A stretch of 64,000 bases of DNA, taken from contig CAVOXA010000014.1 in the NCBI GenBank assembly GCA_963700285.1, positions 224,001 through 288,000 on the forward strand. The letters are read 5' to 3'. Every line of letters starts with the position of its first letter. Position 1 is the first letter of the stretch. Shown here piece after piece: positions 6,224 through 49,561 of this stretch. This DNA is from an uncultured Chloroflexia bacterium. Its GTDB lineage: Bacteria; Chloroflexota; Anaerolineae; JAAYZQ01. The notes under the pieces are model-generated. The model worked only from the letters and a program-made list of their open reading frames with translations. It made no database searches and was not told where the DNA came from. A program made the translations under genes and the position numbers.

Positions 6224-6283
6224 ATCGTATCCGACAATGCCTCTGTTGTCATCAGCGAGTTGGTGGATCCTGTACTCCACAGA
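6224..6283 (-). promoter_or_regulatory. Promoter with the shared island motif (copy 1), upstream of the oxidoreductase
   Basis: Minus strand ATGACA-17-TACGAT. Plus-strand text TGTCATC-AGCGA-GTTGGTG-GATCCTGTACTCCACA aligns with the copies at 8303, 22431 and 22662. Confidence 0.65.
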
Positions 6284-6406
6284 ACAGGACCGCCCGGAGA
6301 CATTCTTGCTCCACACCTGCTGATGGGCCCTCAACAGATGTCGCACACGCGGTGCTGACGAGAAAAGAAGCCAGCAAGGGCGCGCTGAGCACAGCTTGCC
6401 CACACT

Positions 6407-6604
6407 CTATGGTCTATTGCCCAGGATCAACCGAGCTTTTGCTGCTTTCTGGCGTCGTGCCCGGAGGCCAGACCGCAGGGGCCTGGGGAGAAGATGGTGA
6501 GGCTGCCTCAGCCCCCTTGGTACCCGATCATCCCAGTCCTCGAATATGATCCCAGGCACCGCGCCCAAGGACCAGAACCAGTCCAATTTTTCTTGGGGTG
6601 TCAT
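6407..6604 (-). CDS. Small hypothetical protein
   Basis: ATG preceded by GGAGAGG, directly downstream of the USP gene; no recognisable family. Confidence 0.4.
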   Translation of the reverse strand: MTPQEKLDWFWSLGAVPGIIFEDWDDRVPRGLRQPHHLLPRPLRSGLRARRQKAAKARLILGNRP

Positions 6605-6636
6605 GCGAATGATCCTCTCCCGATCGCTTTGCTGAT

Positions 6637-7551
6637 TCAGGTCTTTTGAGCCCGGACCAGCAGGATCGGTTTGTCACCGGCGCGCAGGACCCGGTCGGCC
6701 ACGCTGCCCAGGGCCCAGCGCGCCAGACCTGTCCGGCCATGCGTGCACATGGCGATCAGGTCCACGTGGTTGACCTCAGCATAGTCGATGATGGATTCTG
6801 CAACCGGCCCCAACCATGTGGCTGTGGATACCTGAATCCCTTGATCCCTGAGGCCGCTGGCCTGGCGCTCCAGATAGGCATGGGCATCCTGGTCGGCTGT
6901 CTGAAAACTGCCTTGCAGAGGCATGTACCAGTCGCCTATGAGCGAGCCAGAGGCATAGACGATGGGCACCTGGAAAAGGGTCATTTCGCACCCCAGGGAC
7001 CTGGCAATCGGGGTGATGGTTGGCAAAACCTGCTCGGCCACTTGCGAGCCGTCCAGCGGCACCAGGATACGACGACACGGGCAGGCTTCCGGCAAGCCTT
7101 TCGGAGCATCCTCTTTCGCGCGCACCAAAAGCACCGGCTTGCTGGCCGACTGCAGCACGCGCTCGGCCACGCTGCCGTGGGTCCAGCGGTTGATCCCCGT
7201 ATACCCATGGGAGGCCATGACGATAAGGTCGACATCCCCTTGCTCGAGAAATTTCAGGATGGCGTCCGCCGCCTGCCCATGACCGACGGCGTGGCTGAAG
7301 CTCAGCCCGGCCTTGGACAGGAGATGGCTCATCGCTCGCAGGTATTGGTTGGCCTCGATTTCGAGCTGCTCCAGGAGTGGAGCAGCTTTCAAGCCAGCTT
7401 TGTCCAGAGCATCCTGAGCGTCAGATGGAATCGAAACTGCGCGGAACAGGATGAGTTCGGCTGGCAGCCCTCTACCCAGGGTCATGGCGCAGGGGAGCGC
7501 TTGCTCGGCGAGATGTGAACCGTCCAGTGGAACGAGAATTCGAGTCTCCAT
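6637..7551 (-). CDS. Tandem universal stress protein (2 x USP domain)
   Basis: Two copies of RILVPLDGS...DLI(V/A)MxxHG.tG..RWxxGSVAERVL...KP(V/I)LLVR. Confidence 0.93.
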   Translation of the reverse strand: METRILVPLDGSHLAEQALPCAMTLGRGLPAELILFRAVSIPSDAQDALDKAGLKAAPLLEQLEIEANQYLRAMSHLLSKAGLSFSHAVGHGQAADAILKFLEQGDVDLIVMASHGYTGINRWTHGSVAERVLQSASKPVLLVRAKEDAPKGLPEACPCRRILVPLDGSQVAEQVLPTITPIARSLGCEMTLFQVPIVYASGSLIGDWYMPLQGSFQTADQDAHAYLERQASGLRDQGIQVSTATWLGPVAESIIDYAEVNHVDLIAMCTHGRTGLARWALGSVADRVLRAGDKPILLVRAQKT

Positions 7552-7666
7552 TGCCCCCTCCTTCTATTTGCTACACGCGACATGCAGTTTCAAAGCTTCA
7601 GCGACGCGATGGCCAAGGCAAGCAAGCCCTTTTGCCGACCTGCCATTGGCACATCATCGGCCAAAC

Positions 7667-8059
7667 CTAGCTGGCAGGACCGGATAGACCCTGGACCTGG
7701 GCCAGGATGGCGTCGTGCAGCGCTTGAGGCGAATCGCCTTTGAACAGGATGGCATCGGCGCCGGCGGCAGCTGCCTTCGCCCGATACTGAGGGTGGATCG
7801 TCAGGGCGACGACCTTAACTTCAGGCCACCGGTCCTTGATACGGCGCGTGGCCTCCACCCCATCCATTACCGGCATCTGCATGTCCATCAGAACCAGGTG
7901 AGGCTGGCATTCTGAGACAAAGCGGACTGCCTCCTGGCCATTGGCAGCAGATCCCACCACTTCTACCTGTGGATAGAGGGATAGCAGGGCTCGTAGACCT
8001 TTGCGCGTCGCCCGCCGGTCATCGGCGATCAGAACCCGTACCGATCTCTCCATGTGCAT
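7667..8059 (-). CDS. Single-domain response regulator (NarL-like receiver only)
   Basis: VRVLIADD, LVLMDMQMPVMDGVEAT, VALT, FKG; no output domain; RBS GAAGGAGG. Confidence 0.85.
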   Translation of the reverse strand: MHMERSVRVLIADDRRATRKGLRALLSLYPQVEVVGSAANGQEAVRFVSECQPHLVLMDMQMPVMDGVEATRRIKDRWPEVKVVALTIHPQYRAKAAAAGADAILFKGDSPQALHDAILAQVQGLSGPAS

Positions 8060-8279
8060 CCCTCCTTCTTGGCTGAACGTTGAGTGCCAAGTGACGTACA
8101 GTGAGCGCACCGCCGTCTCTGCTATTGTCAGCGCCGCAGTACAGTTACTGCCGTCTCCACTTTATGTCAAATTTACCTTCTGTGTCCTCGCCACAGATGG
8201 AGATCGTGTAGCACCCGGCTTTGTCCACCGGGGGATTGTGATTGCACGTACCTGACGTGCTCTGGGTCGTGTTACCCTT

Positions 8280-8338
8280 ATGTTACCTGAATTCGGCTTT
8301 GCTGTCATCGTAGGGTTGATTGATCTTTTCCTCAACAA
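8280..8338 (-). promoter_or_regulatory. Promoter with the shared island motif (copy 2), upstream of the receiver/USP genes
   Basis: Minus strand ATGACA-17-TAACAT; plus-strand text TGTCATC-GTAGG-GTTGATT-GATCTTTTCCTCAACAA. Confidence 0.7.
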
Positions 8339-8621
8339 GACAAAAGCGACCCCGGGCCGCCGTGCTCCACATTTGTTGATGGGCGTTCAACGGCTGTCGT
8401 AGACGCCACACTGGCGTGCATCCTCAGGGGAGCAGGCCGGGCGCATACGCTGGCTGGGCGTCTCGAACCATGCCGGCCTTGACCGGGACGTCTGGCGTCA
8501 CCGCGATCTACAGACCAGGCGGAATCACGGCCACTTTGGGGGAGCGTAGGACAACTCGCCGACGGCGCTCTGGCTCAGCGACTGCAGGCACTGAGCCGGG
8601 TCAGGATCCACAGCAATTACG

Positions 8622-9565
8622 TCAGGGCTGCTGAAGGTTTCTCAGGTAGAATGTCTTTCCCCCGTAAGCAACTTTGACAAGTTGACCGCTGGCAATGAGT
8701 ACGCGGACGACGGGCCACCCAGCTCCGTCCCGGGTCAGCAGTTCGTCGACAGCGTCCTGGCGCATGGGGTGCACGGCGGTGATACTCAGCAGGTCTTTTT
8801 CGGCGTTTCCTGTGAAGGCAAAGGCGTTGCCCTCATAGCCAATGAGGAGCTCTACCTGGTCGACTTTCTCACTGAAGAGTCTGGTAGGCCTGATTGATGA
8901 CTGCCTCCGTTGGGGGTCGCACCCACGCTTCCGCTGGCGGCCGCGTGGGGACCGCCAGGTACGCGGTGGCTGGCTTCAATTGGGCCAGCAGGCCGGCGAC
9001 TCTGCTGAGGTGCTCGGTGCCATCGTTGATATCCTCGACCAGCATCGTCTCTGTCACCAATTCTCCCTCAAAGGCCCGTGCAAACGCTAGCGCCCCATCA
9101 AGTATCGCAAAAGTTTGCAGACTGCCGTGCGGACGGTCAACCAGGCGCCACGTTTCTTCCACCGGCGAATCGACCTTCAGAGAGACCCAGTCCGCCTTCA
9201 TCAAGGCATCCCTCACATCTTTGTGCCAAATGAGGGAGGTATTGGTGATCACGGCAATCGGGATCGCCAAGTGGCCTCAGTAGCTCGATCTCCCGGCCGA
9301 GGTTGATGTCCAGCGTGGGCTCTCCATCGGGTACAAAGGTTAGGTAGTCAATCGCGTCGCCAGCCGCCCTTACCAGCCTGACCTTGTCCTCAACATCCCG
9401 AACGATATTCTCTGGCTCGTAGAAGGCACGGCGCTCAGCCTGCATCTTGAGTGTACGTCCCAACTGGCAGTAGACGCAGGAATAGGTGCACGTCTTGGGC
9501 GGGATATTGTTGATCCCCAGGCTGCGCCCCAGGCGCCTGGAGGGAACTGGTCCGAAGGCTATCAT
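8622..9565 (-). CDS. Radical SAM protein (COG0731-like Fe-S oxidoreductase), split by two frameshifts near 9270 and 8880
   Basis: FGPVPSRRLGRSLGIN, CTYSCVYC (CxxxCxxC), DGEPTL. Continues in other frames as AVITNTSL...VSLKVD and LIGYEGNAFA...ITAVHPMR to TGA at 8622. Confidence 0.85.
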
Positions 9566-9748
9566 GGTGCGCCCTCCCCGTGTTGCGGCATGCTATCGAT
9601 CCGCCTTGAGTATAGTCAAGTACTCCTTCGCGATTGGCACCCTGGGTTGGCGGAGTTGTTGGCACCGTTGTCGGAGGCAGGCAGGTCGCGGACCTGCCTG
9701 GAGCGATGGCGAAGGCTGCGTTCGTGCGCTTGGGCATTGAAGGCCGGA

Positions 9749-10051
9749 CCCCGTCAGGCGAAAACCGACGATCCGGTCGTCCTGCAAAAAGACTTTGCAC
9801 AGGCTTCCATCGCGGCGCACACGCAGTTCCTCCCCTTCCATCAGGCCCACGGCCATGACCGGCAGGCCCAAGTGTTTCAAACTGTTCATATTGTCGGCAC
9901 CTTCGTAGACCGTGTCCTGGCCCAGTAGGTTGTAGGCCACGATCCGTCCCTGGGCCACGGCGTTGGGAAAGATGGCGTGCACGTAGCGTTCAGCGGTGAT
10001 CTGGCCCTTGGTCTCTGCTACGTCCCCGGCGGCATAGACATCCGGGAAGAT
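9749..10051 (-). pseudogene. C-terminal fragment of an NAD(P)/FAD-dependent oxidoreductase
   Basis: PDVYAAGDVAE...HAIFPNAVAQGRIVAYNLLG...IVGFRLTG, lacking the N-terminal FAD/NAD-binding part and the true C-terminus. Confidence 0.7.
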
Positions 10052-10229
10052 GGGCTACCTCCTTTTATGGAATCGGGAGACACACTCTCCGTTTGGAGTC
10101 TCCCTGCGGCATGAAACGAACTCGTGATTCAAATGGTCTTGTGATCCCGGAGCCACGTCCTTTCCGTTCCTCCTATATCTGGACTGCAGACCGGCCCAGC
10201 CTCCTCCAACCTGTCTTAAGCCTGGTGAG

Positions 10230-11060
10230 TTAAAACTGCAGGATGGTACCGGCCGGGCAGGGGCGCACAACCGACGCTCCGAGAATCTGCGTCAGGGCGA
10301 CAAAGGCTGCTTCACCGGAACAGTGATTCGGGTAGACGCGCTGAAGCGCCGGCATCCCCGAAAGCACTTGGCCGATGTGTTGCAGGTCATCGTCGCTGGC
10401 GCTGGTCAGGTGCAGCCCACCGGCGACGACCGTGATCGGGCGTTCGCACAGGCACTTGACACCTGCCAGCGTGTTGAGCAGACCGGCATGGCAGCAGCCA
10501 CAGAGTAGAACGAGATGGTCGGCCGTCTGCAGCACCAGCGCCATGTCATCGCCATAAGCGTCTGGGACGAGCGCATCTCCATCGCGCATCAGGTGACGCT
10601 GGCTGCCGCCCTCCGGTTCGGGCCGTTCAGATATCTCACCCGTTGTCCAGACACCGGGGATGATCTTTTGCGGCGCCGCACTCAATACGAGACCGAAGTG
10701 GTCAACCAGCTCCGCCTGCGCCATGGCAAAGCCAATCGATTCTGTCTTGCCTGACCGCTGCGAAAAGCGCTCGCGAAAGACGTCAGGGTTGGCGTAGAGC
10801 GGGATGCCGGGACGCAGACGCTTCAGCAGCATCGCCAAACCCCCCGTGTGATCATAGTGTGCGTGGCTGATGGCCAGCGCGTCTATCGTCGCCGGATCCA
10901 CGTCCAGCAAAGCTAGATTGTGCAGCAGCACGGTACCACTCTGGCCGGTGTCAAAAAGCAGGCGCTTGCCCTCTGCTTCAATCAGGAAGGCCAGACCGTG
11001 TTCGCCCCAGAACGGGGAATTGCGTTGAACCGCGTCGTCAACAATACAGGTTACTTGCAT
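10230..11060 (-). CDS. MBL-fold metallo-hydrolase (COG1237-like)
   Basis: WGEHGLAFLIE, LFDTGQSG, SHAHYDHTGG, GCCHAG, GGLHL, PNHCSG. Confidence 0.9.
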   Translation of the reverse strand: MQVTCIVDDAVQRNSPFWGEHGLAFLIEAEGKRLLFDTGQSGTVLLHNLALLDVDPATIDALAISHAHYDHTGGLAMLLKRLRPGIPLYANPDVFRERFSQRSGKTESIGFAMAQAELVDHFGLVLSAAPQKIIPGVWTTGEISERPEPEGGSQRHLMRDGDALVPDAYGDDMALVLQTADHLVLLCGCCHAGLLNTLAGVKCLCERPITVVAGGLHLTSASDDDLQHIGQVLSGMPALQRVYPNHCSGEAAFVALTQILGASVVRPCPAGTILQF

Positions 11061-11348
11061 GGCTCTCTCCTTTGTGTCAGGGCTGGCGCCAGGCGCTCTG
11101 TCTCCTGTGCATTGGTGTGCTACTCGCCCTCCCCGCTGACGGACGCGCGGCAACCGATGAGTGTTCTTGCGCCTCCCTACCTAATGCCGGATCACACCAC
11201 TGACACCAGCATTTTGGTGGCCCGCACCACGACCCGATGCGAAGCTGCTGAAACGAGCAGAAAACGCCAGGTCACGGACACTTTGACTGAACTCAGCGCA
11301 GGCCTGGCTCGAGCAGTTAGAAGCCAAGGTCTATTCTATGTAAGCCGA

Positions 11349-11858
11349 CTAGTCCTCCTGTCCACCTTTCGAACTGCGGCGACTGAGCTGGCGGATGATC
11401 CCCAAAACGGCGTTCATGCGAGGGACTCTTTGCATGTAGTCCTGGTACGCCGTCCCAAATTTTGCAACTAGCGACTGCTCCTCGAAAACAGCGCTAGCAT
11501 AGCATGTGGCCGCAGCGACAACTCCCAGGACAGCAACCAGCCAATTCTGGGCGATCAGGGCCAGGGCCAGGCTCATGAGTACCCCGGCGAGATACTGCGG
11601 GTGCCGCACAATGCTGTAGAGCCCACTATCAACCAGCTCAGTGGTCTGCACATAGCTTTTTCCTCTGGCCACACCCCCCTTCTTGCGAAAAGTGTAGATG
11701 GGCAGCCAGCCAAAGACACCCGAAATCGCCAGCACGAACCACCCAACGTTTGTTAGCCAGTCAGTGCCCGTCTGGTTGTAGAGTAGGAAGGAAAGAATGA
11801 TCTGACCAACGGCTGCGATAGTCAAAACAGCACCGAGCAAGGCCATCCTTTTGTTCAT
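11349..11858 (-). CDS. Isoprenylcysteine carboxylmethyltransferase / PEMT-family membrane protein
   Basis: LVDSGLYSIVRHPQYLAG and EEQSLVAKFGTAYQDYMQRVPR motifs; hydrophobic helices. Confidence 0.85.
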   Translation of the reverse strand: MNKRMALLGAVLTIAAVGQIILSFLLYNQTGTDWLTNVGWFVLAISGVFGWLPIYTFRKKGGVARGKSYVQTTELVDSGLYSIVRHPQYLAGVLMSLALALIAQNWLVAVLGVVAAATCYASAVFEEQSLVAKFGTAYQDYMQRVPRMNAVLGIIRQLSRRSSKGGQED

Positions 11859-11926
11859 CACCATCTCCTCAAGGGTATCTGTAAGCGGATCAGAGGCCAA
11901 CTCTGTCATCTCTCGGTCGATCGCGT

Positions 11927-13186
11927 TCATTCCCTCGGAAGGTAGAGTGTCTCCTGAATCATGGCCAGAAGCGGCAAACGCAGGCAGACATCGATGGCAA
12001 TGGCCGCAAAGAACACGTACTGCGGGCCGACGTGCTCCCAGATCAACCCGCCTATCAGAGGAGCCGGAATACTCAGCAGGCCACGGAACAGGCCAACGAC
12101 GCCGATCCAGCGTCCCATCTGTTCCTGGGGCATAATCTCGGCCGCCATCGAAGAGGCCAGGGCCATGTTGATGCTGTTAAAGCCAAAAAGCAGGCCGTAG
12201 AGCAACAGGCTCAGCGATGCGCCCACACCCGTGACCGGCGCATAGATCAGGAGTAGATTGGCCAGATAGGGCAGCGGCGCGATGGCAAAAAGCAAGGTCT
12301 TGCGACCGTACCGGTCAGCCAGGCGTCCTACCGGAATCGAAGCGACCATGGGCACCAACACGCTGGTCATGGCAATGCCACCCAGGACAAACTCGTTGGC
12401 CCCCTTGATATCATGCGCATAGACCGGCATGAAGGGTTGGGCTATCGTATAGGGCAGTTCCATAAGGCCCATCACCAGCAGAAGCCGAACCACGTCTGGG
12501 CCCTGCTGAAAGACCTGAGCAAAACTCGAGAGAACCCGGTGGCGGCCGCCGGGACCGTTGTGGGCCTTGGCAGCGGACAAGCGGGTCAGCAAGAGGACAA
12601 AGATCAGCCCAAAGATGAGCGCCTGGATGGCAAAAAGTGGGCGAATGCCCTCAACACTGATGCCGCCAAACCGAGAGATAAGCCAGGCCGCCAGCATTGG
12701 GGTAACGATGGCCACCGGCGAAGCCAGCGTCCGGCAGAGACCGCGCCCGGTAGCGCGTCCCTCGTTCCGCAGCTCCCCGGCGCAGGTGACGGTGCAGGCG
12801 GTACAGGTGATGCGCGAGCCCAGATAGTAGATGATAATCGCGATATAGAGCCAGGTCCAGAAAGGGGCCGCGAAGTATAACAGGCTGGACGCTGCCAGCA
12901 ATGCAGCGCCGATGAGAAACACGTTCTTCAGGCTGTAGTAGTCGATAAACCAGCCGGCGGGCAAGGAGGCCAGCGCGCTCACGGTGTTGCCCGCGCTCTG
13001 GAGCGACCCCAGTTGTACCGCGTTGGCCCCCAGCAATGTGGCATAGATGGAGGTATATTGCGTGGTGAGGCCCGTGGCCAATCCATGCAAGGTCCGGCGG
13101 CTCAACATCAGCTTAAAGTTGGGCGTTTGACGTCGCGCAAAATCAATGCCGCGCCGGACGATCCTTGATGTATTCATTGGCTCCAA
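11927..13186 (-). CDS. MFS transporter
   Basis: About 12 hydrophobic segments; GRLADRYGRK motif. Confidence 0.88.
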   Translation of the reverse strand: MEPMNTSRIVRRGIDFARRQTPNFKLMLSRRTLHGLATGLTTQYTSIYATLLGANAVQLGSLQSAGNTVSALASLPAGWFIDYYSLKNVFLIGAALLAASSLLYFAAPFWTWLYIAIIIYYLGSRITCTACTVTCAGELRNEGRATGRGLCRTLASPVAIVTPMLAAWLISRFGGISVEGIRPLFAIQALIFGLIFVLLLTRLSAAKAHNGPGGRHRVLSSFAQVFQQGPDVVRLLLVMGLMELPYTIAQPFMPVYAHDIKGANEFVLGGIAMTSVLVPMVASIPVGRLADRYGRKTLLFAIAPLPYLANLLLIYAPVTGVGASLSLLLYGLLFGFNSINMALASSMAAEIMPQEQMGRWIGVVGLFRGLLSIPAPLIGGLIWEHVGPQYVFFAAIAIDVCLRLPLLAMIQETLYLPRE

Positions 13187-13259
13187 TGCCGAGGGATGAG
13201 GCTGGGCTGTCCCTCTCTACTCCGTCGTCAATGATGGTCAGAGTATAGCAGTACAGCCT

Positions 13260-13736
13260 TCACCAATCGAACTGGGCTTCACCTTGGCTCGCTCCATCCG
13301 TAAACCATTCAGCAAGCGCCTGTTGCAGTGCGTTTACCGTCAAGCTAGCGCAGTGCATTTTGGCCCTGGGCAAGCTATCCAGAGCGACAATCAGCTCCCT
13401 CGGTCCGATTTCGCCCGCCTCATCCGGCGACAGCCCCTGCACCATTGTGGTGAGCATGCTGCCGCACGCCAACGCCGGCTCGCGGCCATCGGTCATGAAG
13501 GTAGCTTGTGTGATCCGGTCATCATCCAACCGCAGGTAGATCTCCATCGTATCGCCACAGCAGCCATGAATGACCCCATAGGCATCTGGCTCGACCATGC
13601 GGCCCTGGTTCTTGGGATCGAGCGCTAGCTCGATGACCTTGGCCGAATAGAGAAGCTGGGTCTCGTGTGCCACGGCGTCCTTCTGCGGTTCAGGGACCAT
13701 CTGTTCCACGGTTGTTGCATCTCCTTGATGTCCCAT
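13260..13736 (-). CDS. IscU/NifU-like Fe-S cluster scaffold protein
   Basis: PKNQGRM, GCCGDTMEIYL, ACGS, KMHCA; RBS AAGGAG. Confidence 0.85.
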   Translation of the reverse strand: MGHQGDATTVEQMVPEPQKDAVAHETQLLYSAKVIELALDPKNQGRMVEPDAYGVIHGCCGDTMEIYLRLDDDRITQATFMTDGREPALACGSMLTTMVQGLSPDEAGEIGPRELIVALDSLPRAKMHCASLTVNALQQALAEWFTDGASQGEAQFDW

Positions 13737-13936
13737 GCAAGACTCCTTTGCAGGCAATGAGTAGCCATCCTGTCAGTCATGCTGGTGCACGATCTCTTCC
13801 AGATGTCCCCGCCAGTAGCTCAGATCGCCTCCGGGCAGATTCCACACTACCTCACCGTCCATCGGGATCAACAGTGATTGTCAGACCGTACTCCAGACCC
13901 ATCGTATCTCGCCAAAAAACTCGGCATCTTCCAGCC

Positions 13937-14374: not shown

Positions 14375-14400
14375 CGGAACCAGACCTCCTTCAGTGTTTC

Positions 14401-15150
14401 TTACTTGTCCCTTGTGGGCTTTCGCATCATGGTTAGCAGCCGCTTGCCCCGTATCTGGCGAAAGGTAGCCGCTTGGCCTACGGTCTGCAGTACGGCGGCC
14501 ACATCCACCACCCGCGTCCCGGATATGGCATCGATGCCGTACTCGAACAGGACCGGCGACAGCGGGGCGCTGGCCCCGAGCAGGACCACAAAGGCATCAG
14601 GACGGCACAGACTGACCAGGTCGTCAAAGGTATGATTGAGGAGCGAGGTGCCGGTGAGCGCCACTACGTCTGCCTGGGGAAGCACTTCCACTGCTTGCCC
14701 GGCGGAAAGGTCACCGGCGCGGGGGCGCAGTTCCAGCACCCAGCAGGTAGCTGCTGCCTGGCGCACCCGCTCCACAAAGGGGAAGTGACCGATGATGGCC
14801 ACCCGGTGCCCGGCCGCGCGCTGTAGAATCACATTCTCGGCGTTCACCTGGGTGCAGGCTGCCTCATCCACTTCCAGCAGGGCATTGAAGGCCGCCATGC
14901 CGATGCTGGCCCTCAGAATGCTGGGGGAGCGAAGCCACTCGGCCAGCTCCCGCCCGCTGTATTCCAGCAGGCGGCCTGCCTCCGGCACTGGGGGTCCGGC
15001 TTCGTGGGACTCTGCGCGCAGGGTCGAGGCCAGGCCACATCGAAGTGGCTCGGTGTCCAGAACCACCGCTGTCCAAAAGGCTCCGACCAAAACCTGTCGC
15101 ACCGGTGCGTCCGCTTGCAGGCTATTCAACAGCGTGTCAATGGCGTTCAT
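14401..15150 (-). CDS. DUF364-family (Rossmann-like, putative heavy-metal chelation) protein
   Basis: ASIGMAAFNAL, VAIIGHFPF, DVVALTGTSLLNHT, LLGASAPLSP. Confidence 0.8.
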   Translation of the reverse strand: MNAIDTLLNSLQADAPVRQVLVGAFWTAVVLDTEPLRCGLASTLRAESHEAGPPVPEAGRLLEYSGRELAEWLRSPSILRASIGMAAFNALLEVDEAACTQVNAENVILQRAAGHRVAIIGHFPFVERVRQAAATCWVLELRPRAGDLSAGQAVEVLPQADVVALTGTSLLNHTFDDLVSLCRPDAFVVLLGASAPLSPVLFEYGIDAISGTRVVDVAAVLQTVGQAATFRQIRGKRLLTMMRKPTRDK

Positions 15151-15183
15151 CTTGTTCCTTCTCTTAGGAAATTCCTGACTTGA

Positions 15184-15663
15184 CTAGGCGCCACGCCTGC
15201 GTCGCCGCCGGCCATGGCCGCCCCCCTCGCCACGGGCCCGGGAGCCGCCGCATGGCGTGCTCTGCCGGGTAGCCGGCGATTCCCTGCTCTCCAACCGGCG
15301 GTCCAGATCGCGCAGAAAATAGTCCGCCAGCCGGGGCAGGATCTCGCGCCCAGCCCAGACCAGGGCTCCACCGACAACCGGCAGGACGCTAGCCCGGAAA
15401 GGTACTGGAGCAGGCCCGGTCTTGACCTGGATGACTCGCGGCTCGGGCCGCAGAGCTGGTACTCGGGCCGGGTCGACAGCGGGTTCTGAGGGCATGGCGA
15501 GGGCGATGGCCTCTATGGGGCAGGCAGCAATGCAGGTCTCGCAGTCGCGGCAGAGCCTTTGGTCTACTACCGCCCTGCCACCAACCAGGTAGATGGCGCC
15601 CGTTGGACAAGCCTCCACGCACGCGCCGCAGCCATTGCAGCGATCCACGTTGATAACAATCAT
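15184..15663 (-). CDS. 2x[4Fe-4S] ferredoxin domain with a C-terminal helix and Gly/Arg-rich tail
   Basis: CNGCGACVEACP and CRDCETCIAACP; tail [15 protein letters not shown]. Confidence 0.85.
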   Translation of the reverse strand: MIVINVDRCNGCGACVEACPTGAIYLVGGRAVVDQRLCRDCETCIAACPIEAIALAMPSEPAVDPARVPALRPEPRVIQVKTGPAPVPFRASVLPVVGGALVWAGREILPRLADYFLRDLDRRLESRESPATRQSTPCGGSRARGEGGGHGRRRRRRGA

Positions 15664-15693
15664 CCTAGATCACCTCCTTCCCCGCAGTCCCGG

Positions 15694-15930
15694 TCAGCAG
15701 TCGTGTGGATGGGGATGACCATGATCTGCCATTGACCCACCCAGCTTCTCCAAGGCTGCCGCCAACGCCTCATTGGCTGATTCCATCCGAGCTGCTGCCA
15801 CCTCAATGTCAGCTTCCGCTTCGGCCGCCAACTCCGCCCAAAGACGGAACTGGGCTGCATGCTCGACATTGTGCTCGATCCAGTGAGGCAGCATTGCTCT
15901 CAGCTTGTCCCGTCCGATCATGGCTGCCAT
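15694..15930 (-). CDS. Small His-rich helical protein (putative metal-binding)
   Basis: LPHWIEHNVEHA motif and C-terminal DHGHPHPHDC; translationally close to cooT. Confidence 0.7.
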   Translation of the reverse strand: MAAMIGRDKLRAMLPHWIEHNVEHAAQFRLWAELAAEAEADIEVAAARMESANEALAAALEKLGGSMADHGHPHPHDC

Positions 15931-15931
15931 C

Positions 15932-16129
15932 CTATGCTCCCTCCACTGGCACCAGCGTGACCGAGTGTTTCAGAAAGTCAATGCGGCTCACCCTGGCCTT
16001 GACAACCACCGGTTCCTCGAAGAATGCCTGCAAACGCAAACCATTCTCTACCGGTTCCAACAGAACGAGATCCCGCATGATCTCCTCATCCTGACCATTC
16101 TTGGACAAAAAAACCGTTGCTTGGCACAT
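15932..16129 (-). CDS. cooT: CooT-family nickel-binding protein
   Basis: N-terminal MC, EEIMRD, DFLKHSVTL; 65 aa, typical of the family. Confidence 0.75.
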   Translation of the reverse strand: MCQATVFLSKNGQDEEIMRDLVLLEPVENGLRLQAFFEEPVVVKARVSRIDFLKHSVTLVPVEGA

Positions 16130-16141
16130 GAGATCCTCCGT

Positions 16142-16447
16142 TCAGGGGCTCTCTCTCAGGATCGCATTCAACTCCTCGGCCCCCACATAGCCCACTACCT
16201 CAATATCCTGCTCTCTGACACCCGGGACCTGAGCCACCGCATCTCGAATGTTGAGTACCAGCGTGACGGCCAGTGGGCAGAGGGGTGACGAAGGCCGAAA
16301 CCTGTAGCGCACGAGTCCTGTCTTGCTCTCCACCTGCAGATCTTCAATGAGCCGCATGCGGATCACATCCACGCCTGTCTCCGGGTCAATGACCTGGCTC
16401 AGAGCCTCGATGATGGCGTGTTTGAGTTCGATAGAGTGAACGTCCAT
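16142..16447 (-). CDS. DUF59 (SufT/MIP18-like) Fe-S assembly protein
   Basis: ALSQVIDPETGVDVIRMRLI, PSSPLCPLA. Confidence 0.85.
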   Translation of the reverse strand: MDVHSIELKHAIIEALSQVIDPETGVDVIRMRLIEDLQVESKTGLVRYRFRPSSPLCPLAVTLVLNIRDAVAQVPGVREQDIEVVGYVGAEELNAILRESP

Positions 16448-16448
16448 C

Positions 16449-17333
16449 CTACTCCTCCAGTCTTGCGCTGACGTTCAGCCACATTTCCGCTAGCGCTCCC
16501 GTCATTGCCCCTTTGGGCTGGTAGGCCGTTACCGGCTGTCCCCGGACCATGGCCTCAGTGACGATGGTGTCATAGGGCAACTTGCCCACCACCTCGATGC
16601 CCTCAGAAGCGCAGTAGGCTTCGATGGCAGTCGTATAGGCCGGGCTGAGATCCGCCTTGTTGATACACACCAGCGCCGGCACACCAAAGTGATTCACCGT
16701 ACCCAGCGCTCGTTCCAGATCGTGGATGCCGGACACGGTGGGCTCTACCACCAGCAGGGCCAGGTCTGCGCCTGCACTGGCCGAAATAACCGGGCAGCCG
16801 ATACCGGGCGGCCCGTCGACGATAAGCAGCTCGCGGCCCTCGTCCAGGGCCAGCAGCCGGCCGTGCTGTTTGACCAGGGTCACCAGTTTGCCCGAGTTCT
16901 CCTGTGCAGCGAACAGGTGGGCGTGGAACAGCGGCCCGAAGCGTGTGTCCGATCGAAACCAGAGCCCGGCGTGCTGCTCCTCACAGTGAATGGCCGTTTC
17001 TGGGCACTGGGTTACGCACGAGGCGCAGCCCTCGCAGGCCAGCGGGTCCACACGGTAGGTGTCATCACCTGGGATGACGGCGTCGAACCGGCAGACCTCG
17101 TGGCAGCGCCCGCACAGTCCACACAGATCGGGATCAATGATGGCCACCTGCCCGCCCATGAATACATGTTCTTCTACTTGGACCGGATCCAAGACCAGGC
17201 CCAAATTGGCGGCATCCACGTCGGCGTCGGCCAAGACGATGGGCTTCTCTTGCGAAGCCAGGTGAGCCAGGGCGGCCACCACTGAGGTCTTGCCCGTGCC
17301 GCCCTTTCCGCTGAGGATCACCAATTGCTTCAT
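16449..17333 (-). CDS. MinD-superfamily P-loop ATPase with inserted ferredoxin domain (COG1149)
   Basis: SGKGGTGKT, DADVDAAN, two CxxCxxCxxxC motifs, DGPPGIGCP, VEPTVSG. Confidence 0.9.
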   Translation of the reverse strand: MKQLVILSGKGGTGKTSVVAALAHLASQEKPIVLADADVDAANLGLVLDPVQVEEHVFMGGQVAIIDPDLCGLCGRCHEVCRFDAVIPGDDTYRVDPLACEGCASCVTQCPETAIHCEEQHAGLWFRSDTRFGPLFHAHLFAAQENSGKLVTLVKQHGRLLALDEGRELLIVDGPPGIGCPVISASAGADLALLVVEPTVSGIHDLERALGTVNHFGVPALVCINKADLSPAYTTAIEAYCASEGIEVVGKLPYDTIVTEAMVRGQPVTAYQPKGAMTGALAEMWLNVSARLEE

Positions 17334-18202
17334 AGAGCCACCTCTTGGGCGATCTGTTCATAAAGTCTGACAAAGCGGGGGCGATACTCGGGCAGTGCCT
17401 CTACCAGCGCCTTCCCGTCCGAAACAGCTTCCGCGATGCGGCGGTCCAACGGAATGCGCATCAAGATCAGTATGCCCTCGCTGGCACAGTACTGCTCCAC
17501 ACCCTCATCGCCGACGCCATCGCGGTTGATGATGACACCCACCGGCAGGCCCAGCTCGTCGCGGGCGACCTCCACTGCCAGACGCAGGTCATGCAAGCCA
17601 AAGGGCGTCGGCTCGGTGACCATCAGCACAAAGTCGGCATCGCGCATCGTCTCTACCACGGGGCAAGAAGTGCCAGGCGACGAGTCGAGGATCACCACAC
17701 GGTCATCTGCTGCGGCCAGGTACTTTTTTTTGAGCTGGTGGATGATGGGCACGGGCATGGCCTGACCCACGTCCAATGTACCCTGGGCGAAATCGATCAG
17801 CCCCGTCGAACCTGATTCCAGGGTGCCCGTGACGTTGAGTACCTCGTGAAGCGCTTCTTCCGGGCAGTTGAGCGTACAACTGCCACAACCATGGCACAGT
17901 TCGGGGAAGATGAGCACCCTTTTGCCCACGACAGCGATGGCATGCCAGACACAGACCTCGGCACAGCGGCCACAGAAGGTGCACTTGGCATAGTCCACCT
18001 CGGGGATCAGGATGCCGACCTCATCGCGGTGGTCCAGCTCTGGTTGGAGAAAGAGGGCGGCGTTGGGTTCTTCTACGTCGCAGTCCAGGAAGAGCGGATT
18101 GGCAGAACTGGCGGATCGATGCGCTGTCATCGACAGCGCCAAACTGGTAGCGACGGTGGTCTTGCCCGTACCTCCTTTACCACTTGCAACGACAATCATC
18201 AT
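17330..18202 (-). CDS. MinD-superfamily P-loop ATPase with inserted ferredoxin domain (COG1149)
   Basis: ASGKGGTGKTT, DCDVEEPN, CTFCGRC/CHGCGSC, DSSPGTSCP, VTEPTPFGLHDL. Confidence 0.9.
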   Translation of the reverse strand: MMIVVASGKGGTGKTTVATSLALSMTAHRSASSANPLFLDCDVEEPNAALFLQPELDHRDEVGILIPEVDYAKCTFCGRCAEVCVWHAIAVVGKRVLIFPELCHGCGSCTLNCPEEALHEVLNVTGTLESGSTGLIDFAQGTLDVGQAMPVPIIHQLKKKYLAAADDRVVILDSSPGTSCPVVETMRDADFVLMVTEPTPFGLHDLRLAVEVARDELGLPVGVIINRDGVGDEGVEQYCASEGILILMRIPLDRRIAEAVSDGKALVEALPEYRPRFVRLYEQIAQEVAL

Positions 18203-18286
18203 GTCAGAGCTTCCTCCGGTTCAGTTTCGGCCTCACTTGCGTCCCACCTCCAGCACCCCTGCCAGAGAGAGTCGAGGTGAGATGGA

Positions 18287-19453
18287 TCATTCAGTCAGGT
18301 CCGCGAGCGCCTCGGCCAACGTCGCGGCTTGTATCAGCCGTGTCTCCACGCCCGCGTCAGCAAACACGTAGGCCGGCCCCTTGCCTTGAACATCCTGGCG
18401 CAGCAGGACCACGTCAGTCTTGAGGGCCACCAACCACTCACCCACGCGAATGCCCTTGGCCTTCTCCGCGCCCGTTTGGGGATTGGCCAGCACTTCCTGG
18501 CGCTCAACCTGGCCATCGGACGTGCGAACCGTTGCGAGAGCAAAGTAGGGCGATTCGCCGAAATGTTCGCTAACCGTCCCGCCCACATCGGCCAGAGGTA
18601 CGGCGTAGCGCAAGTGAGTGCGCACTTGCGGCTCGTAATGGATCAACACCCGTTCTACGTGGGGCACCTGTACACGGATGGCCTTTTCCAGGCGTTGGCT
18701 GACGGCGTGGGCTTTTTCCAGATCGTCCACCCTCAGGGCCAGGTCGGCTTCCAGGAATCGATAGCGGCCCGCGTTGCGCCCCACCACCCACCGCAGCTCC
18801 GTCACGGTGGGTTCGGCCTCAATGATCGCCCGTACCTGATCCAGCGTTTCGGCGTCCAGGGAGGCATCCAGCAGCACACGCATCCCGTCGGACAATAGCT
18901 CCCAGCCGGTTTTGCAGATGAGCACCACGATGACCAGCGCTGCGTAGCGATCCACCGGGTACCCGATCATCTGGCCGACGAGAGCCAGAAATACTACCCC
19001 CGACGAAAAGACGTGGGCGCGGTACTCCTGGGCGTCGGCCATCAGGCTGGGTGAGTTGAGTCTCCGGCCCACCCGCATCTCGTAGAAGCTGAAGGCCAGC
19101 GGTACGACCGCCGACACCGCCACACCGGCCAGCATCCAGCCGTTGACCGTCGTCGCCTGAGCGTCACCAAAGAGTGCCTGCTTGGCGATCTCGTAGCCTG
19201 TGAAAAAGATGAGGATCGAGATGCCCACGGCCACCACGTTCTCCACCTTGTAGAGCCCGTAGGGAAAGTCTCGGCTCTCCCGCTCCGAGATCTTGACCCC
19301 TGCCAGCACGGCCACCGAGGCGACCAGGTCCACCAGGTTGTGGACCATCTCGGCGGCCACCGCCAAGCTGCCCGAGGCCGCCGCGATGGCAAGGTTCAGC
19401 AGGCTGAGAAAGATATTTACAGCAATGGATGCCCAGGCAACTCGCGAAGCCAC
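18287..19453 (-). CDS. Cation diffusion facilitator (CDF) transporter fused to a C-terminal NifB/NifX domain
   Basis: SGSLAVAAEMVHNLVD, FPYGLYKVEN, dimerisation domain ending IHYEP, then VSEHFGESPYF (NifX-like). GTG start after GAGGGG. Confidence 0.85.
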   Translation of the reverse strand: MASRVAWASIAVNIFLSLLNLAIAAASGSLAVAAEMVHNLVDLVASVAVLAGVKISERESRDFPYGLYKVENVVAVGISILIFFTGYEIAKQALFGDAQATTVNGWMLAGVAVSAVVPLAFSFYEMRVGRRLNSPSLMADAQEYRAHVFSSGVVFLALVGQMIGYPVDRYAALVIVVLICKTGWELLSDGMRVLLDASLDAETLDQVRAIIEAEPTVTELRWVVGRNAGRYRFLEADLALRVDDLEKAHAVSQRLEKAIRVQVPHVERVLIHYEPQVRTHLRYAVPLADVGGTVSEHFGESPYFALATVRTSDGQVERQEVLANPQTGAEKAKGIRVGEWLVALKTDVVLLRQDVQGKGPAYVFADAGVETRLIQAATLAEALADLTE

Positions 19454-19476
19454 GTCGTCCCCTCTGTCCTTCTTGA

Positions 19477-19627
19477 TACTGTTGGAAAATCCTGACATTG
19501 TCACTGCGAGCGAAGCGAAGCAGTCCCCAACACAGTCAAAAGTGGGGATTGCTTTCCTGTCGCTGCGCTCAGGACAGGCTCTCGCTGCGCTCGTCGCAAT
19601 GACAGGTGTGACATTCTTCCACCAGTA
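19477..19627. repeat. Composite nested REP-like element
   Basis: Outer arms TACTGTTGGAA/TTCCACCAGTA; inner TGTCACTGCGAGCGAAGCGAAGCAGTCCCC...GGGGATTGCTT...TCGCAATGACA; embedded CCTGTC-GCTGCGCTCAG-GACAGG. Confidence 0.7.
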
Positions 19628-19668
19628 ACTTCTTGCACAACCAGTCGCACGGGGCTGGTCGCGGGCGG

Positions 19669-19875
19669 CTAATCCCGCATCATCTGCGCGCCGCATTTGG
19701 GGCACTTGGTGTCGTAACAGGGCTGCCCGGTCTGGTGCGAAACTCGATGCCCGCACATGGGGCAGATGCAGCTACCGGCGGGCCCGGCGGCTTTGGATCC
19801 GCCCATGCGCCCTGGCCCACGGCCTCGACCGCGACCACCCCCTTGACCAGCTCCGCCCCCCTGTCCTCGACCCAT
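19669..19875 (-). CDS. Small Gly/Arg-rich, Cys-rich (zinc-ribbon-like) protein
   Basis: MGRGQGGGAGQGGGRGRGRG...CICPMCG...PCYDTKCPKCG; RBS GGAGGG. Confidence 0.8.
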   Translation of the reverse strand: MGRGQGGGAGQGGGRGRGRGPGRMGGSKAAGPAGSCICPMCGHRVSHQTGQPCYDTKCPKCGAQMMRD

Positions 19876-19904
19876 GTTGCCCTCCTGCCCTCCTTCTGTA
19901 TCCG

Positions 19905-20387
19905 CTATTGGCTCAACTGGTTCAGCCGGCGGCCTACTTCTTCCAGTTGCTGCTGGAGCATCTCGGCTTCCTCGCGCAGCCGGCCCGCATCGTCCTGTTC
20001 GTACTCGCCTTCGGACGGCAGATGCCCATGCTTCTGGCTCTCCACGCATGGCTCTGCGCCCTGGAGCTGGCCGCCCAGGTAACGCTCCAACGACTGGCTC
20101 ACTGTCCCATAGGCCCCGGTGACACCATCGATCCCATACTGCTGGAAGAACATGATGGCCCGGCCGCCCATGCCGCCGGTGAGCATCACGTTCGCCCCCA
20201 GGCCGTTGATGAACCCCGGAACCTGGCCCGGCTGGTGCTGCCCATAGAAGGGGTTGTCCACTTCACGAACTCCGATGACGTCCTGGTCCTGCAAATCCAC
20301 CAGGATGAAATGGGGACAGCGCCCAAAGTGGGGGCTGACGACGCTGTCCAGGCCATTCTTGTTGTCGGCTGAAACGGCAATACGCAC
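19905..20387 (-). CDS. NifB/NifX-family (IPR003731) protein with a C-terminal coiled coil
   Basis: MRIAVSAD, VSPHFGRCPHFILVD, LTGGMGGRA. Confidence 0.88.
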   Translation of the reverse strand: MRIAVSADNKNGLDSVVSPHFGRCPHFILVDLQDQDVIGVREVDNPFYGQHQPGQVPGFINGLGANVMLTGGMGGRAIMFFQQYGIDGVTGAYGTVSQSLERYLGGQLQGAEPCVESQKHGHLPSEGEYEQDDAGRLREEAEMLQQQLEEVGRRLNQLSQ

Positions 20388-20390
20388 CGG

Positions 20391-20945
20391 CTAACCCTCC
20401 TTCTCCAGTTTGTCGATCTTTTCCATTGTCTCGGCCAGTTGCTGGCGCAGGCCCTTGAGCGTTTCGCGCAGCTCGTCCATTTCCGATCCGCTGGCAGCCT
20501 GAGGCTCCGGCTGAATCGGTGCGGATTGCTGCATCCCACGGCCCATGCCCGCTCCACGCCGGCCCCCCATGCCGCGCCCCATGCCCATTCCTGCGTGGCC
20601 GGCCACATTGGCCCCGGCCATCGGCCGGAGTTGGCCTGCCCGGTAGGCTTCCACGGCCTGGCGAACTGTTCCCTCCCCGACCAGGTATCCCGGCACGCCA
20701 GCGGCCTGCAGTACCTCAAAGGCATTCGGCCCCAGGTTGCCGGTCAGTACGGCCTGGGCGCCCTGGTTTACTACGAATTGGGCGGCCTGAATGCCCGCCC
20801 CGCCACCCTGATTCATGGCCGGGTTGGGAACCGCTTCGAACTCGAGCGTCTCGGTATCCACAAACACGTAGGTCGGACACCGGCCAAAGACCGGGCTCGC
20901 CGGTGCATCCAGGTTCTCGCCTTGCGCAGATACTACAATCTTCAT
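20391..20945 (-). CDS. NifB/NifX-family (IPR003731) protein with Gly/Met/Arg-rich tail and coiled coil (IssA/SipA-like architecture)
   Basis: FGRCPTYVFVD, GGGAGIQAAQ, VLTGNLGPNA, then GMGMGRGMGGRRGAGMGRGM and a helical tail. Confidence 0.88.
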   Translation of the reverse strand: MKIVVSAQGENLDAPASPVFGRCPTYVFVDTETLEFEAVPNPAMNQGGGAGIQAAQFVVNQGAQAVLTGNLGPNAFEVLQAAGVPGYLVGEGTVRQAVEAYRAGQLRPMAGANVAGHAGMGMGRGMGGRRGAGMGRGMQQSAPIQPEPQAASGSEMDELRETLKGLRQQLAETMEKIDKLEKEG

Positions 20946-21160
20946 CTTTGGAATCTCCTATCCGCCGGCTTGATCCGCCGGTGTCATCTGATAGTGGTGG
21001 TTCCCCCATGGCGGGTACCTGCCATCGTTCGGCTGAGGACTTTGGGGCTCGGTCCAACCGCTGGGATCCATCTACCCCCGGGCAGATGGGGAAAGCGGGG
21101 AGCGGAGCGTAGGCGGCTACGTCAGGTGTCCCGCCCCGGCGCCCTCCCCAGCATACTGCC

Positions 21161-21562
21161 TTATTCCTGGACCAACTCGTCCATCCGTTGGCTGATGGCG
21201 TCGAGATGGTCCTTCAGCCACTGTGCTTCATCCCTGAGCATCTCAAGCTCTTGCTCCTGCGATGGAGGTTCATAGGAAACCCCATAGGGGCCCCTATAAG
21301 CCACAGCCGGGGGTGGCCCCCACCGCGCCCAACGCGGCGGACCGGCGTCGTAAACCTGATGCCGCCAGCCCCAGGCCCCACCACGTCCCGCGCCGTAGCC
21401 GACCCAACGTCGGCCATACATCCCAGCACCGCCTCGTCCGAAAAACCTTCGACCTGGCCCCGGATTAGCCCAGCCGGGTGCGTCGTAGCCGCCACAGTAG
21501 CCCACGCCCCGGCCCGTCCCTGGTCCCATGCCTGACGGACCCGTACCGTCTCCTGCTGGCAT
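21161..21562 (-). CDS. DUF5320-family Gly/Arg-rich protein
   Basis: MPAGDGTGPSGMGPGTGRGVGYC, G/R/W-rich middle, ELEMLRDEAQWLK...ISQRMDEL. Confidence 0.85.
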   Translation of the reverse strand: MPAGDGTGPSGMGPGTGRGVGYCGGYDAPGWANPGPGRRFFGRGGAGMYGRRWVGYGAGRGGAWGWRHQVYDAGPPRWARWGPPPAVAYRGPYGVSYEPPSQEQELEMLRDEAQWLKDHLDAISQRMDELVQE

Positions 21563-21602
21563 TCTGCTCACCTCCCTTCTTTCACGAATTCGATATCTCT
21601 AC

Positions 21603-21776
21603 CTAGTTTACCTCGATGATAGCGTCCTCAGGGCACTCGTCAAAACAGATTCCGCATTCCAGGCATTCTTCCGGGTCGATGAAGGCATGGCCATCGACCA
21701 TCGAGATCCCCTCGTTGGGACATACATCCACGCAGGTCTCACAGCCGCTACACTTTTCAATGTCCACCTGATACAT
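21603..21776 (-). CDS. 2x[4Fe-4S] ferredoxin, 57 aa (absent from the ORF track)
   Basis: Manual translation MYQVDIEKCSGCETCVDVCPNEGISMVDGHAFIDPEECLECGICFDECPEDAIIEVN*; RBS AGGAGAG. Confidence 0.9.
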   Translation of the reverse strand: MYQVDIEKCSGCETCVDVCPNEGISMVDGHAFIDPEECLECGICFDECPEDAIIEVN

Positions 21777-21954
21777 CTTGTACTCTCCTCTATGGGTCTT
21801 GTCCGGCCACGACCAACCCGGTCTCTATTGGCCGGCATGCATCTGCATGAAACTCGACGCTTGCGCCTGCGGCGTCCGCTTGGCCAGTTCCCGCGCAATG
21901 GGCGCAAAGGCCCTGGCAGGGTACTCTTGTATCTCCCCCTGTTCAATCCGTCCT

Positions 21955-22353
21955 TCAGGACACCCGCCGGTGCACGGTCATGTGCAGGTCGTACACTTTT
22001 AGGAAGTCGTGGAGCATCCGGTCGGTCTCCCTGAGATCATCTACCCACCAGGCCAGGTAGCCGTCGCCCTTCTCCGTGATCTGGTACAGGCGGCGGGCCG
22101 GACCGGCGCTGCCGGTATCCCAGCGTGAAGTGACAAGACCCCGATCTTCCAGGCTACGCAGAAGGCGGTAGACCGTGCTCGAGTCGGCCGGATTCTGCTC
22201 AAAGCCAAACTGCTTCAGGCCCTCCAGGAGCTCGTAGCCGTGAGCCTCACTATCGTGTAGCAGCATCAGCAGACACGGCTCTACAAAGCGGTGTATGCGC
22301 CTCGGGCAGGCTTCCTGCGACTGCCCGTCTCGCCAGCGGCGACCAGAGCGCAT
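21955..22353 (-). CDS. PadR-family transcriptional regulator
   Basis: EPCLLMLL..EAHGYEL, STVYRLLRSLE..GLVTSRW, GPARRLYQITEKG. Confidence 0.9.
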   Translation of the reverse strand: MRSGRRWRDGQSQEACPRRIHRFVEPCLLMLLHDSEAHGYELLEGLKQFGFEQNPADSSTVYRLLRSLEDRGLVTSRWDTGSAGPARRLYQITEKGDGYLAWWVDDLRETDRMLHDFLKVYDLHMTVHRRVS

Positions 22354-22377
22354 CCGTACCTACCTTTACTTGTCATC

Positions 22378-22396
22378 TATGTGCACGATGCACATA
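22378..22396. promoter_or_regulatory. Perfect 8-3-8 palindrome, candidate PadR operator
   Basis: TATGTGCA-CGA-TGCACATA just downstream of the -10 box. Confidence 0.6.
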
Positions 22397-22407
22397 ACTG
22401 TCTTAGT

Positions 22408-22466
22408 ATGATACCCTACGGTCCATTCGTTGTCATCAGAGGGATGATTGATCTTGTATTCCACAA
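22408..22466 (-). promoter_or_regulatory. Promoter with the shared island motif (copy 3), heading the PadR-NifX operon
   Basis: Minus strand ATGACA-17-TATCAT; plus-strand text TGTCATC-AGAGG-GATGATT-GATCTTGTATTCCACAA. Confidence 0.72.
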
Positions 22467-22638
22467 ACTGAGAGCGCTAAAGGCCGGTCTTTCTCCACAT
22501 TTGCTGATGGCCCCTGCGCAAAAGTCGTAGGCACAAAGATAAGGATTTGAAGTCGAGCAAGACGCGTGTCTGGTGCTTTGTTCTTTGCTTTCACCCTGTG
22601 CGTAGGATGGAGCGGCCATCCGTGATCCAGATGGCTCA

Positions 22639-22697
22639 GTGGTATCTCTGGTCTTGCGGGTTATCATCAGAGTGATGACGGATCTTTGCCTCAACAA
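22639..22697 (-). promoter_or_regulatory. Shared island motif (copy 4) with a weak -10 box
   Basis: Minus strand ATGATA-17-TACCAC; plus-strand text TATCATC-AGAGT-GATGACG-GATCTTTGCCTCAACAA. Confidence 0.6.
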
Positions 22698-22722: not shown

Positions 22723-22741
22723 GGCATTCGCGGATTCAGCA

Positions 22742-49494: not shown

Positions 49495-49561
49495 GAAGAG
49501 GTGAAGGGTAGCCATCGCCGTTTATCGAGAGGCAAACGCAGATAGACTTGCAAGGAGGTGC

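Follow-up and report, generated by a model that had tools for sequence, protein, structure and literature searches.

Four intergenic copies of a sequence motif, all in one orientation, lie in a gene cluster within a 64,000-nucleotide stretch of DNA from an uncultured Chloroflexia bacterium (assembly GCA_963700285.1, contig CAVOXA010000014.1, positions 224,001 to 288,000; hereafter the window). From comparisons among related loci we propose that they are the proximal ends of a promoter cassette of about 125 bp that is probably activated by the adjacent NarL/LiaR-type response regulator. Across the class, related NarL/LiaR-type regulator genes are often followed at a short distance by a cassette of this type, and a conserved dyad, CTACNACA-WW-TGTNGTAG, lies 55–95 bp further upstream, outside the 36 bp that a preliminary description of this DNA had given as the motif. 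Those 36 bp hold a half-site, a weak site and the -35 box.

Four copies of a promoter cassette

The copies are listed below by window position; all are on the minus strand.

6224..6346, minus strand: cassette copy 1, upstream of the Pyr_redox gene; -10 TACGAT 6224-6229, -35 ATGACA 6247-6252, weak site D 6251-6268, half-site C 6274-6281, decayed hairpin, box B 6308-6325, box A 6329-6346
8280..8402, minus strand: cassette copy 2, upstream of the REC-only and USP genes; -10 TAACAT 8280-8285, -35 ATGACA 8303-8308, site D 8307-8324, half-site C 8330-8337, box B 8364-8381, box A 8385-8402
22408..22530, minus strand: cassette copy 3, upstream of PadR; -10 TATCAT 22408-22413, -35 ATGACA 22431-22436, site D 22435-22452, half-site C 22458-22465, box B 22492-22509, box A 22513-22530
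22639..22799, minus strand: cassette copy 4, in the ancestral-type position behind the regulator; -10 TACCAC 22639-22644, -35 ATGATA 22662-22667, half-site C 22689-22696, palindromes 22741-22758 and 22782-22799 in two direct repeats
22696..22723, minus strand: terminator-like hairpin with T-tract, intact, inside copy 4; RNA fold -19.4 kcal/mol, z -5.2

The preliminary description had placed the four copies correctly, as intergenic elements in a single orientation, and was also right that exactly 17 bp separate the -35 from the -10 hexamer in each. Its label 'non-consensus' for the -35 named the right hexamer but overstated the case, since ATGACA matches TTGACA at 5/6 positions. Copy 4 lies 231 bp upstream of copy 3, with no separate gene to itself in this genome. 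On a 39-bp matrix the four copies score 53.8–59.6 bits and the next site in the 7.05-Mb genome 20.9; each copy, when omitted from the matrix, still reaches 38.5–48.7 bits, a score attained in 7.05 Mb by none but the 4 real sites. By this whole-genome scan the motif is unique to the four sites.

Its length had been underestimated: copies 1–3 align for about 65 bp further upstream, and the common element measures about 125 bp. The cluster had further been described as an island with a self-contained regulon. In its exact form the 36-bp variant stays within the cluster, but cassettes of the wider type occur elsewhere in the genome, and 'island' finds no compositional support (GC content 0.59–0.63, against 0.61 for the contig). 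No integrase or transposase was found among the 41 + 26 + 5 window open reading frames (ORFs) scanned, and the flanks are syntenic with those in a sister genome of the same genus, G001. A scan of the window against Rfam gave zero matches.

Read towards the gene, the cassette consists of two 18-bp palindromes CTACNACA-WW-TGTNGTAG, a terminator hairpin, a half-site, a weak site, the -35 ATGACA and the -10. Counted from the predicted start, 7 bp past the -10, the site centres fall at about -121 and -99 (the dyads), -65 (the half-site) and -42.5 (the degenerate site). A de novo palindrome search of the upstream part returned CTACNACA-WW-TGTNGTAG at 12.5 bits, compared with 6.7–7.2 in three shuffles. 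With offsets counted from the G of GATGACA, 16/23 strong dyad hits in held-out cassettes stand in place: 9 start between -95 and -93, and another 7 between -74 and -70. The top two hits in window copies 1–3 are exactly at -93 and -72, and those in copy 4 at -90 and -131; all four copies carry a good right half-site at -38 (4.8–7.8 bits). A class II geometry, with the activator at about -42.5, is weakly supported, the predicted site there being a weak one.

The -35/-10 pair is of the housekeeping type, with a fixed 17-bp spacer and a -10 of the form TGCTATNCT; the consensus of the relatives runs from the hairpin through a T-tract and some 27 bp to TCCGATGACA and then TGCTATNCT. Between non-orthologous copies, identity is 68–78% in the upstream boxes (copies 1–3) and 61–74% in the proximal region, while the -35/-10 spacer (13–53%) and the far upstream flank (21–34%) have drifted. 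The hairpin in copy 4, which a simple terminator scan did not list, likely ends the kinase–regulator transcript. The corresponding stretch of copies 1–3 folds no better than shuffled sequence (z -1.4, 0.0 and +2.5).

Two 19-bp direct repeats at window 22745-22800 match in place a tandem array in G001, where units of about 39 bp are repeated between regulator and cassette (L018:16440-16746) and contain the dyad-like CTACGCG-TCCT-CGCGTAG. This array may be an amplified binding site.

The cassette follows a family of regulator genes

Strict 34–36-bp patterns found the motif in 2 of the 401 class genomes scanned, this one, with 4 copies, and G001, with 5 spread over 50 kb, where it stands before orthologous genes; such patterns miss the wider family, which is seen only with regulator-anchored matrices. 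An exact scan across GTDB gave 4 stretches on 2 contigs. A long pattern, run over 401 genomes of the phylum, matched only two sites, both in this genome, missed the four copies and is too strict to be informative on other classes; a short pattern had 5 hits in this genome and 0 in three shuffles.

Regulator loci were fetched from class genomes and metagenomes with the intact G001 regulator as query. The pattern GATGAC[AG]-N16-18-TA..T occurs within 600 bp downstream of 24/46 regulators of at least 60% identity and of 0/54 below 56% (loci with less than 250 bp downstream excluded). A matrix built from 32 relatives, with neither this genome nor the G001 site among them, was then applied to 81 further regulator loci: 35/81 reached at least 20 bits, compared with 0/81 opposite strands and 0/810 shuffles. 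Where at least 300 bp of sequence follow the cassette, a REC domain lies within 900 bp in 15/31 cases, a few times as part of a second full regulator. The first ORFs behind five cassettes (L049, L052, L050, L056 and L060), which by eye resemble genes for small membrane proteins of the GlsB/YeaQ kind, a repetitive hydrophilic protein, MgtC and a V-ATPase subunit, suggest stress-type targets.

In this genome the relatives' matrix also finds a site at C14:130646 (60 bits), behind a paralogue of the regulator gene (C14:129821-130471, 63% identical), and one at C10:88096 (46 bits); weaker sites at C1:571538 and C22:42985 lie beside two other NarL-type genes and have weak or displaced dyads. Two of these four GATGACA-type promoters point away from other NarL-type genes, which hints that GATGACA is a general promoter signature of the NarL-type family.

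Which protein reads the cassette

The gene pair next to the cassettes is as follows.

22835..23507, minus strand: NarL/LiaR-type response regulator (REC plus LuxR-type helix-turn-helix, HTH), extra base near 23004-23006
23590..25074, minus strand: histidine kinase with RsbRD_N-like, PAS, HisKA_3 and HATPase domains; no membrane domain found with Pfam

A cognate REC plus LuxR-HTH regulator is thus present beside a HisKA_3 kinase whose relatives carry names as Anaerolineae proteins. In an alignment of 87 kinase sequences the N-terminal domain has no invariant His, and the sole invariant Cys falls in a generic PAS stretch; for this reason we assign no cofactor to the kinase. The frameshift in the regulator gene that the preliminary description had noticed is confirmed, as one extra base in the HTH-coding region.

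That description had proposed the adjacent NarL-type regulator as activator, and sequence comparison supports this as likely: the cassette follows related regulators, and the cluster copies resemble those of the regulator's own clade. Scored with the cluster's proximal block, the 13 rows of this regulator's clade have a median of 22.2 bits and the other 68 one of -2.5. Among 81 cassettes of at least 10 bits, duplicates dropped, the +4 base of the -35 box is A in 50/55 cases where one residue of the recognition helix is A, S, P or T, and in 1/18 where it is R or K. The dyad halves shift in parallel with the same residue (T in 14/24 versus 11/86). This helix position aligns with Lys174 of LiaR, which makes base contacts in the structure of LiaR with DNA (PMC4482077).

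PadR had been named as another possible reader, and this suggestion we abandon. Thirty PadR homologue loci were scored (one more was too short); the cassette stands before the two cluster genes only and before 0/28 others, and PadR likely has a separate operator. Judged by eye, 23/28 of the other homologues have TTGACA, and a separate dyad then follows the -10.

Alternative readings

Several observations weigh against assigning the cassette to the adjacent regulator. The gene carries a frameshift in this assembly, there is a paralogue 117 kb away whose recognition helix is almost the same, and 46/81 held-out regulator loci have no cassette of at least 20 bits within 600 bp. Common ancestry of the DNA, and not binding, could account for the clade match, and the residue–base covariation comes down to only 3 changes on a tree built with the recognition helix masked, with 1 independent pair on well-supported branches, which puts significance out of reach. 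Offset -15, the site at about -42.5, gives the best average match in both sets, yet the means are negative (-5.0 and -7.7). Finally, one diverged RNA-library contig of a relative bridges promoter 3. The most direct alternative is that the paralogue is the working activator and the adjacent regulator a true pseudogene, leaving the cluster cross-wired or silent. The extra base does fall in the HTH-coding part, the cluster has suffered real losses compared with G001 (the CO dehydrogenase module, Mrp and the REC gene), and the two recognition helices differ at a single position, EATVRTHVSRIL versus EATVRTHVSNIL. We nevertheless think this unlikely. The extra base lies within a G run, the regulator is in frame in G001 and in a relative's contig (47 differences in 410 bp), and genes are split at a similar rate elsewhere (3/21 in the cluster versus 7/29 outside, some of the latter possibly ORF-calling artefacts), so that the frameshift is probably an assembly error. 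The paralogue's own cassette, moreover, scores just 7.9 bits on the cluster matrix.

We also asked who reads the -35 block. The regulator might bind the upstream dyads only, with the CCGATGACA block read by an alternative sigma factor or a global co-activator of NarL-type promoters; GATGACA is the most conserved block, and a similar -35/-10 pair occurs at C1:571538 and C22:42985, the two sites described above whose dyads are weak or displaced. We hold this to be quite improbable, as the -10 is of the housekeeping type with a fixed spacer and the -35 variant changes with the regulator clade, which would not be expected of one shared reader. There is very little chance that a dimer sits on the inverted repeat TCATC-N5-GATGA across the -35, the core of the motif according to the preliminary description. 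Although the repeat is perfect in copies 3 and 4, and about 70% of the relatives show complementarity at two of its five arm positions, the figure for the other three is 27–30%, and the full distal arm is intact in 3/33 training and 0/35 held-out related cassettes. It has one mismatch in copy 2 and two in copy 1, where with the spacing on the proximal side the pattern goes unmatched even at one mismatch, and 22 exact copies of the palindrome are scattered over the genome. Least credible of all is that the copies represent neutral remnants of duplication, a structured RNA or sites for PadR. They are paralogous, and one lacks a gene of its own; but conservation is block-wise with fixed spacing while the spacers drift, the hairpin is lost in copies 1–3 and Rfam is silent, and PadR homologues lack the cassette and carry a dyad of their own.

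The PadR promoter and the target genes

The genes behind the four copies are:

4732..6090, minus strand: pyridine nucleotide-disulfide oxidoreductase (CoA-disulfide reductase/NADH oxidase-like), behind copy 1
6637..8053, minus strand: REC-only protein and double-USP protein, behind copy 2
8620..22353, minus strand: genes behind copies 3 and 4, encoding PadR, ferredoxin, DUF5320, two NifB/NifX-like proteins, a cation-efflux plus NifX protein, two MinD-like 4Fe-4S ATPases, DUF59, CooT and Fer4; and DUF364, CGGC, NifU, MFS, a methyltransferase, a metallo-beta-lactamase fold, an FAD-oxidoreductase fragment and a split radical SAM protein
22378..22396, no strand: palindrome ATGTGCA-N3-TGCACAT

The target genes had been named correctly (the Pyr_redox gene, REC, USP, PadR and the NifX-like genes, with CooT at 15932-16129). 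The 'CoA-disulfide-reductase-like' gene is of the Pyr_redox family, but its 229 bits on the CoA-disulfide reductase model fall below the cut-off of 578.8. The genes at 8620..22353 form a co-oriented set whose grouping as one operon is putative. Taken together, the targets belong to Fe-S/nickel cofactor assembly, redox and stress functions, and in G001 a CO dehydrogenase module joins them. Directly after CooT comes an ORF of 78 aa (window 15694-15930) that has a His-rich tail, matches nothing in Pfam and is 90% identical in G001; it may be a nickel-handling partner.

Beyond the -10 of copy 3 lies the palindrome ATGTGCA-N3-TGCACAT, whose exact form is unique in the genome, similar dyads occurring there before cassette-less PadR homologues; it is likely the PadR auto-operator. 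A dyad of this type after the -10 is conserved across the class in this PadR family (L226-L253) and is likely an undescribed PadR operator. The predicted start is at 22401, and neither of two identical RNA contigs reaches it, their ends lying at 22374 and 22386. For the PadR-operon genes, near-identical RNA contigs give partial cover, and contigs as such cannot give start, strand or level. The public runs yielded at most 0.20 of the words, as contigs only, and their low cover of regulator and kinase carries no weight.

Three side observations concern the remainder of the window. A protein encoded at 856-2595 has several bacterial Ig-like domains and a C-terminal LysM domain; GC content drops to 0.54 at 48001-50000, around a DUF4432 gene within a sugar-utilisation cluster; and frameshift-split genes occur at 29758-31643, 56417-58169 and 8620-9565 (WD40-like/peptidase S9, fucose isomerase and radical SAM), as does a split kinase gene in G001 (L018:14169-15651), consistent with indel errors in both assemblies.

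The sister genome and the origin of the copies

G001 has an intact regulator gene, followed by a cassette copy that drives a REC-only gene absent at that place here; contigs of relatives from two DNA runs likewise have no REC-only gene between copies 3 and 4. The G001 cluster contains cooF, a CO dehydrogenase above the model cut-off and an FAD oxidoreductase. This cooF-cooS-FAD oxidoreductase module (L019:11523-15357) is absent at window 9593-10052 except for the C-terminal part of the oxidoreductase, and the Mrp/ApbC gene behind the G001 PadR is also missing here. A CO dehydrogenase is encoded elsewhere in this genome.

G001 has two recent cassette duplicates, 79% identical over 239 bp. Between them lies a 17.5-kb segment (L019-L020) with ABC transporter, YjeF, USP and GH94 genes, which is absent at window 8231-8438, where copy 2 stands alone. 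Copy 2 may have arisen by a clean recombination of the two duplicates, although the DNA behind its -10 matches neither. Eleven fetched loci have two cassettes of at least 25 bits, some of them near-identical including the hairpin (L050, L060) and some behind tandem regulators. We infer that copies 1–3 were pasted from the site downstream of the regulator, because the terminator has decayed in them and because the other PadR homologues have no cassette and mostly TTGACA. A 35-bp element at window 2835-2869, matching two places in G001 between oxidoreductase and sulfatase genes, may be a small intergenic repeat.

A model for activation and for growth of the regulon

In the model that we favour, the PAS kinase is predicted to phosphorylate the adjacent NarL/LiaR-type regulator, whose dimers would occupy the strong distal dyads and, by cooperative binding, the weak proximal sites along the same face of the helix. 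By analogy with the DesR, LiaR and NarL ogt promoters, the bound regulator would recruit sigma-A RNA polymerase to the weakened -35. The cassette would have its home immediately after the regulator gene, a position from which it often drives a REC-only gene. The regulon would have grown as the cassette, together with its terminator, was copied to the front of other genes, and at PadR the copy would have displaced an ordinary TTGACA promoter and left the PadR operator in place, so that the operon would need activation and de-repression together. The signal, at a guess, is a cytoplasmic redox or metabolic cue.

A broader proposal, which we offer tentatively and regard as doubtful, would have these regulators constitute a class-wide NarL-type family with a portable terminator-plus-promoter cassette. 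The regulator would read the -35 as a half-site; one residue, the equivalent of LiaR Lys174, would set both the dyad (CTACGACA or CTACGTCA) and the -35 (GATGACA or GATGTGC); and copying would have rewired a PadR-repressed Fe-S/nickel and CO-dehydrogenase cluster in this genus. If it were true, copying the unit before other operons would rewire them in one step.

For a response-regulator family that is common in Anaerolineae-type bacteria but uncharacterised, the cassette supplies a binding motif and a promoter layout that can be tested, and its matrix can predict targets in uncultured genomes. Growth of a regulon by promoter copying would leave the traces seen here: decayed terminators, recent duplicates in G001, and a constitutive-type promoter swapped for a regulated one.

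Comparison with known systems

The binding motif is new, while the activation mechanism is of a textbook kind. We found nothing relevant in the literature on a described motif or regulon for this family in Anaerolineae-type bacteria, subscription journals, supplements and regulon databases being outside the scope of the search. CooA and RcoM control CO dehydrogenase clusters, and the CooA box is TGTCA-N6-TGACA. The G001 cluster resembles these in its cooF-cooS-FAD oxidoreductase genes, and cooT is found both there and here; the differences are the two-component control that we propose and the copies themselves, which are unlike the CooA box.

The closest solved regulators are LiaR and VraR (E 2e-57), of the LiaFSR and VraSR systems of Enterococcus and Staphylococcus. 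For LiaR, the published account gives the dyad consensus T(X)4C(X)4G(X)4A and a tetramer that covers this consensus and an adjoining secondary site, from -120 to -77, in a numbering that may start from the translation start (PMC4482077). The cassette dyad fits that consensus as given, with matrix frequencies of 0.65 (T), 0.83 (C), 0.83 (G) and 0.65 (A) at the four positions. The systems differ in the kinase, which here is a PAS kinase in which no membrane domain was found and which scores 117 bits on the LiaS model against a cut-off of 450; in the helix, TEATVRTH here and TLKTVKTH in LiaR; in the targets, here cofactor-assembly and redox genes; and in the terminator inside the cassette.

DesR is more distant (E 6e-33). 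Its dyad, shared with pneumococcal RR11, is ATGACA-N2-TGTCAT with an ACA-N2-TGT core, to which RR11 adds a half-site 7 bp on (PMC11034029). At Pdes of B. subtilis two sites on one face of the helix are required, a strong distal one and a weak proximal one (PMC4251995). The cassette shares the ACA-N2-TGT core, and its -35 hexamer is identical to the DesR half-site. It is no DesR box by the same comparison, however, because it reads ACNACA-WW-TGTNGT with CT/AG flanks, so that position 2 of each half differs; and it has up to four sites over about 100 bp.

Among E. coli NarL promoters, sites lie at -43.5 in yeaR and at -44.5 and -77.5 in ogt (PMC10853779). The likeness extends to the LuxR-type HTH, the 2-bp dyad spacer, a proximal site adjoining the -35 and tandem sites in phase (PMC10853779). 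The half-site is different, the regulator scores 194 bits on the NarL model against a cut-off of 250, there is no NarX-type sensor, and the proximal site is degenerate here. By kinase type or by model cut-offs, the system is none of LiaFSR, DesKR or NarXL.

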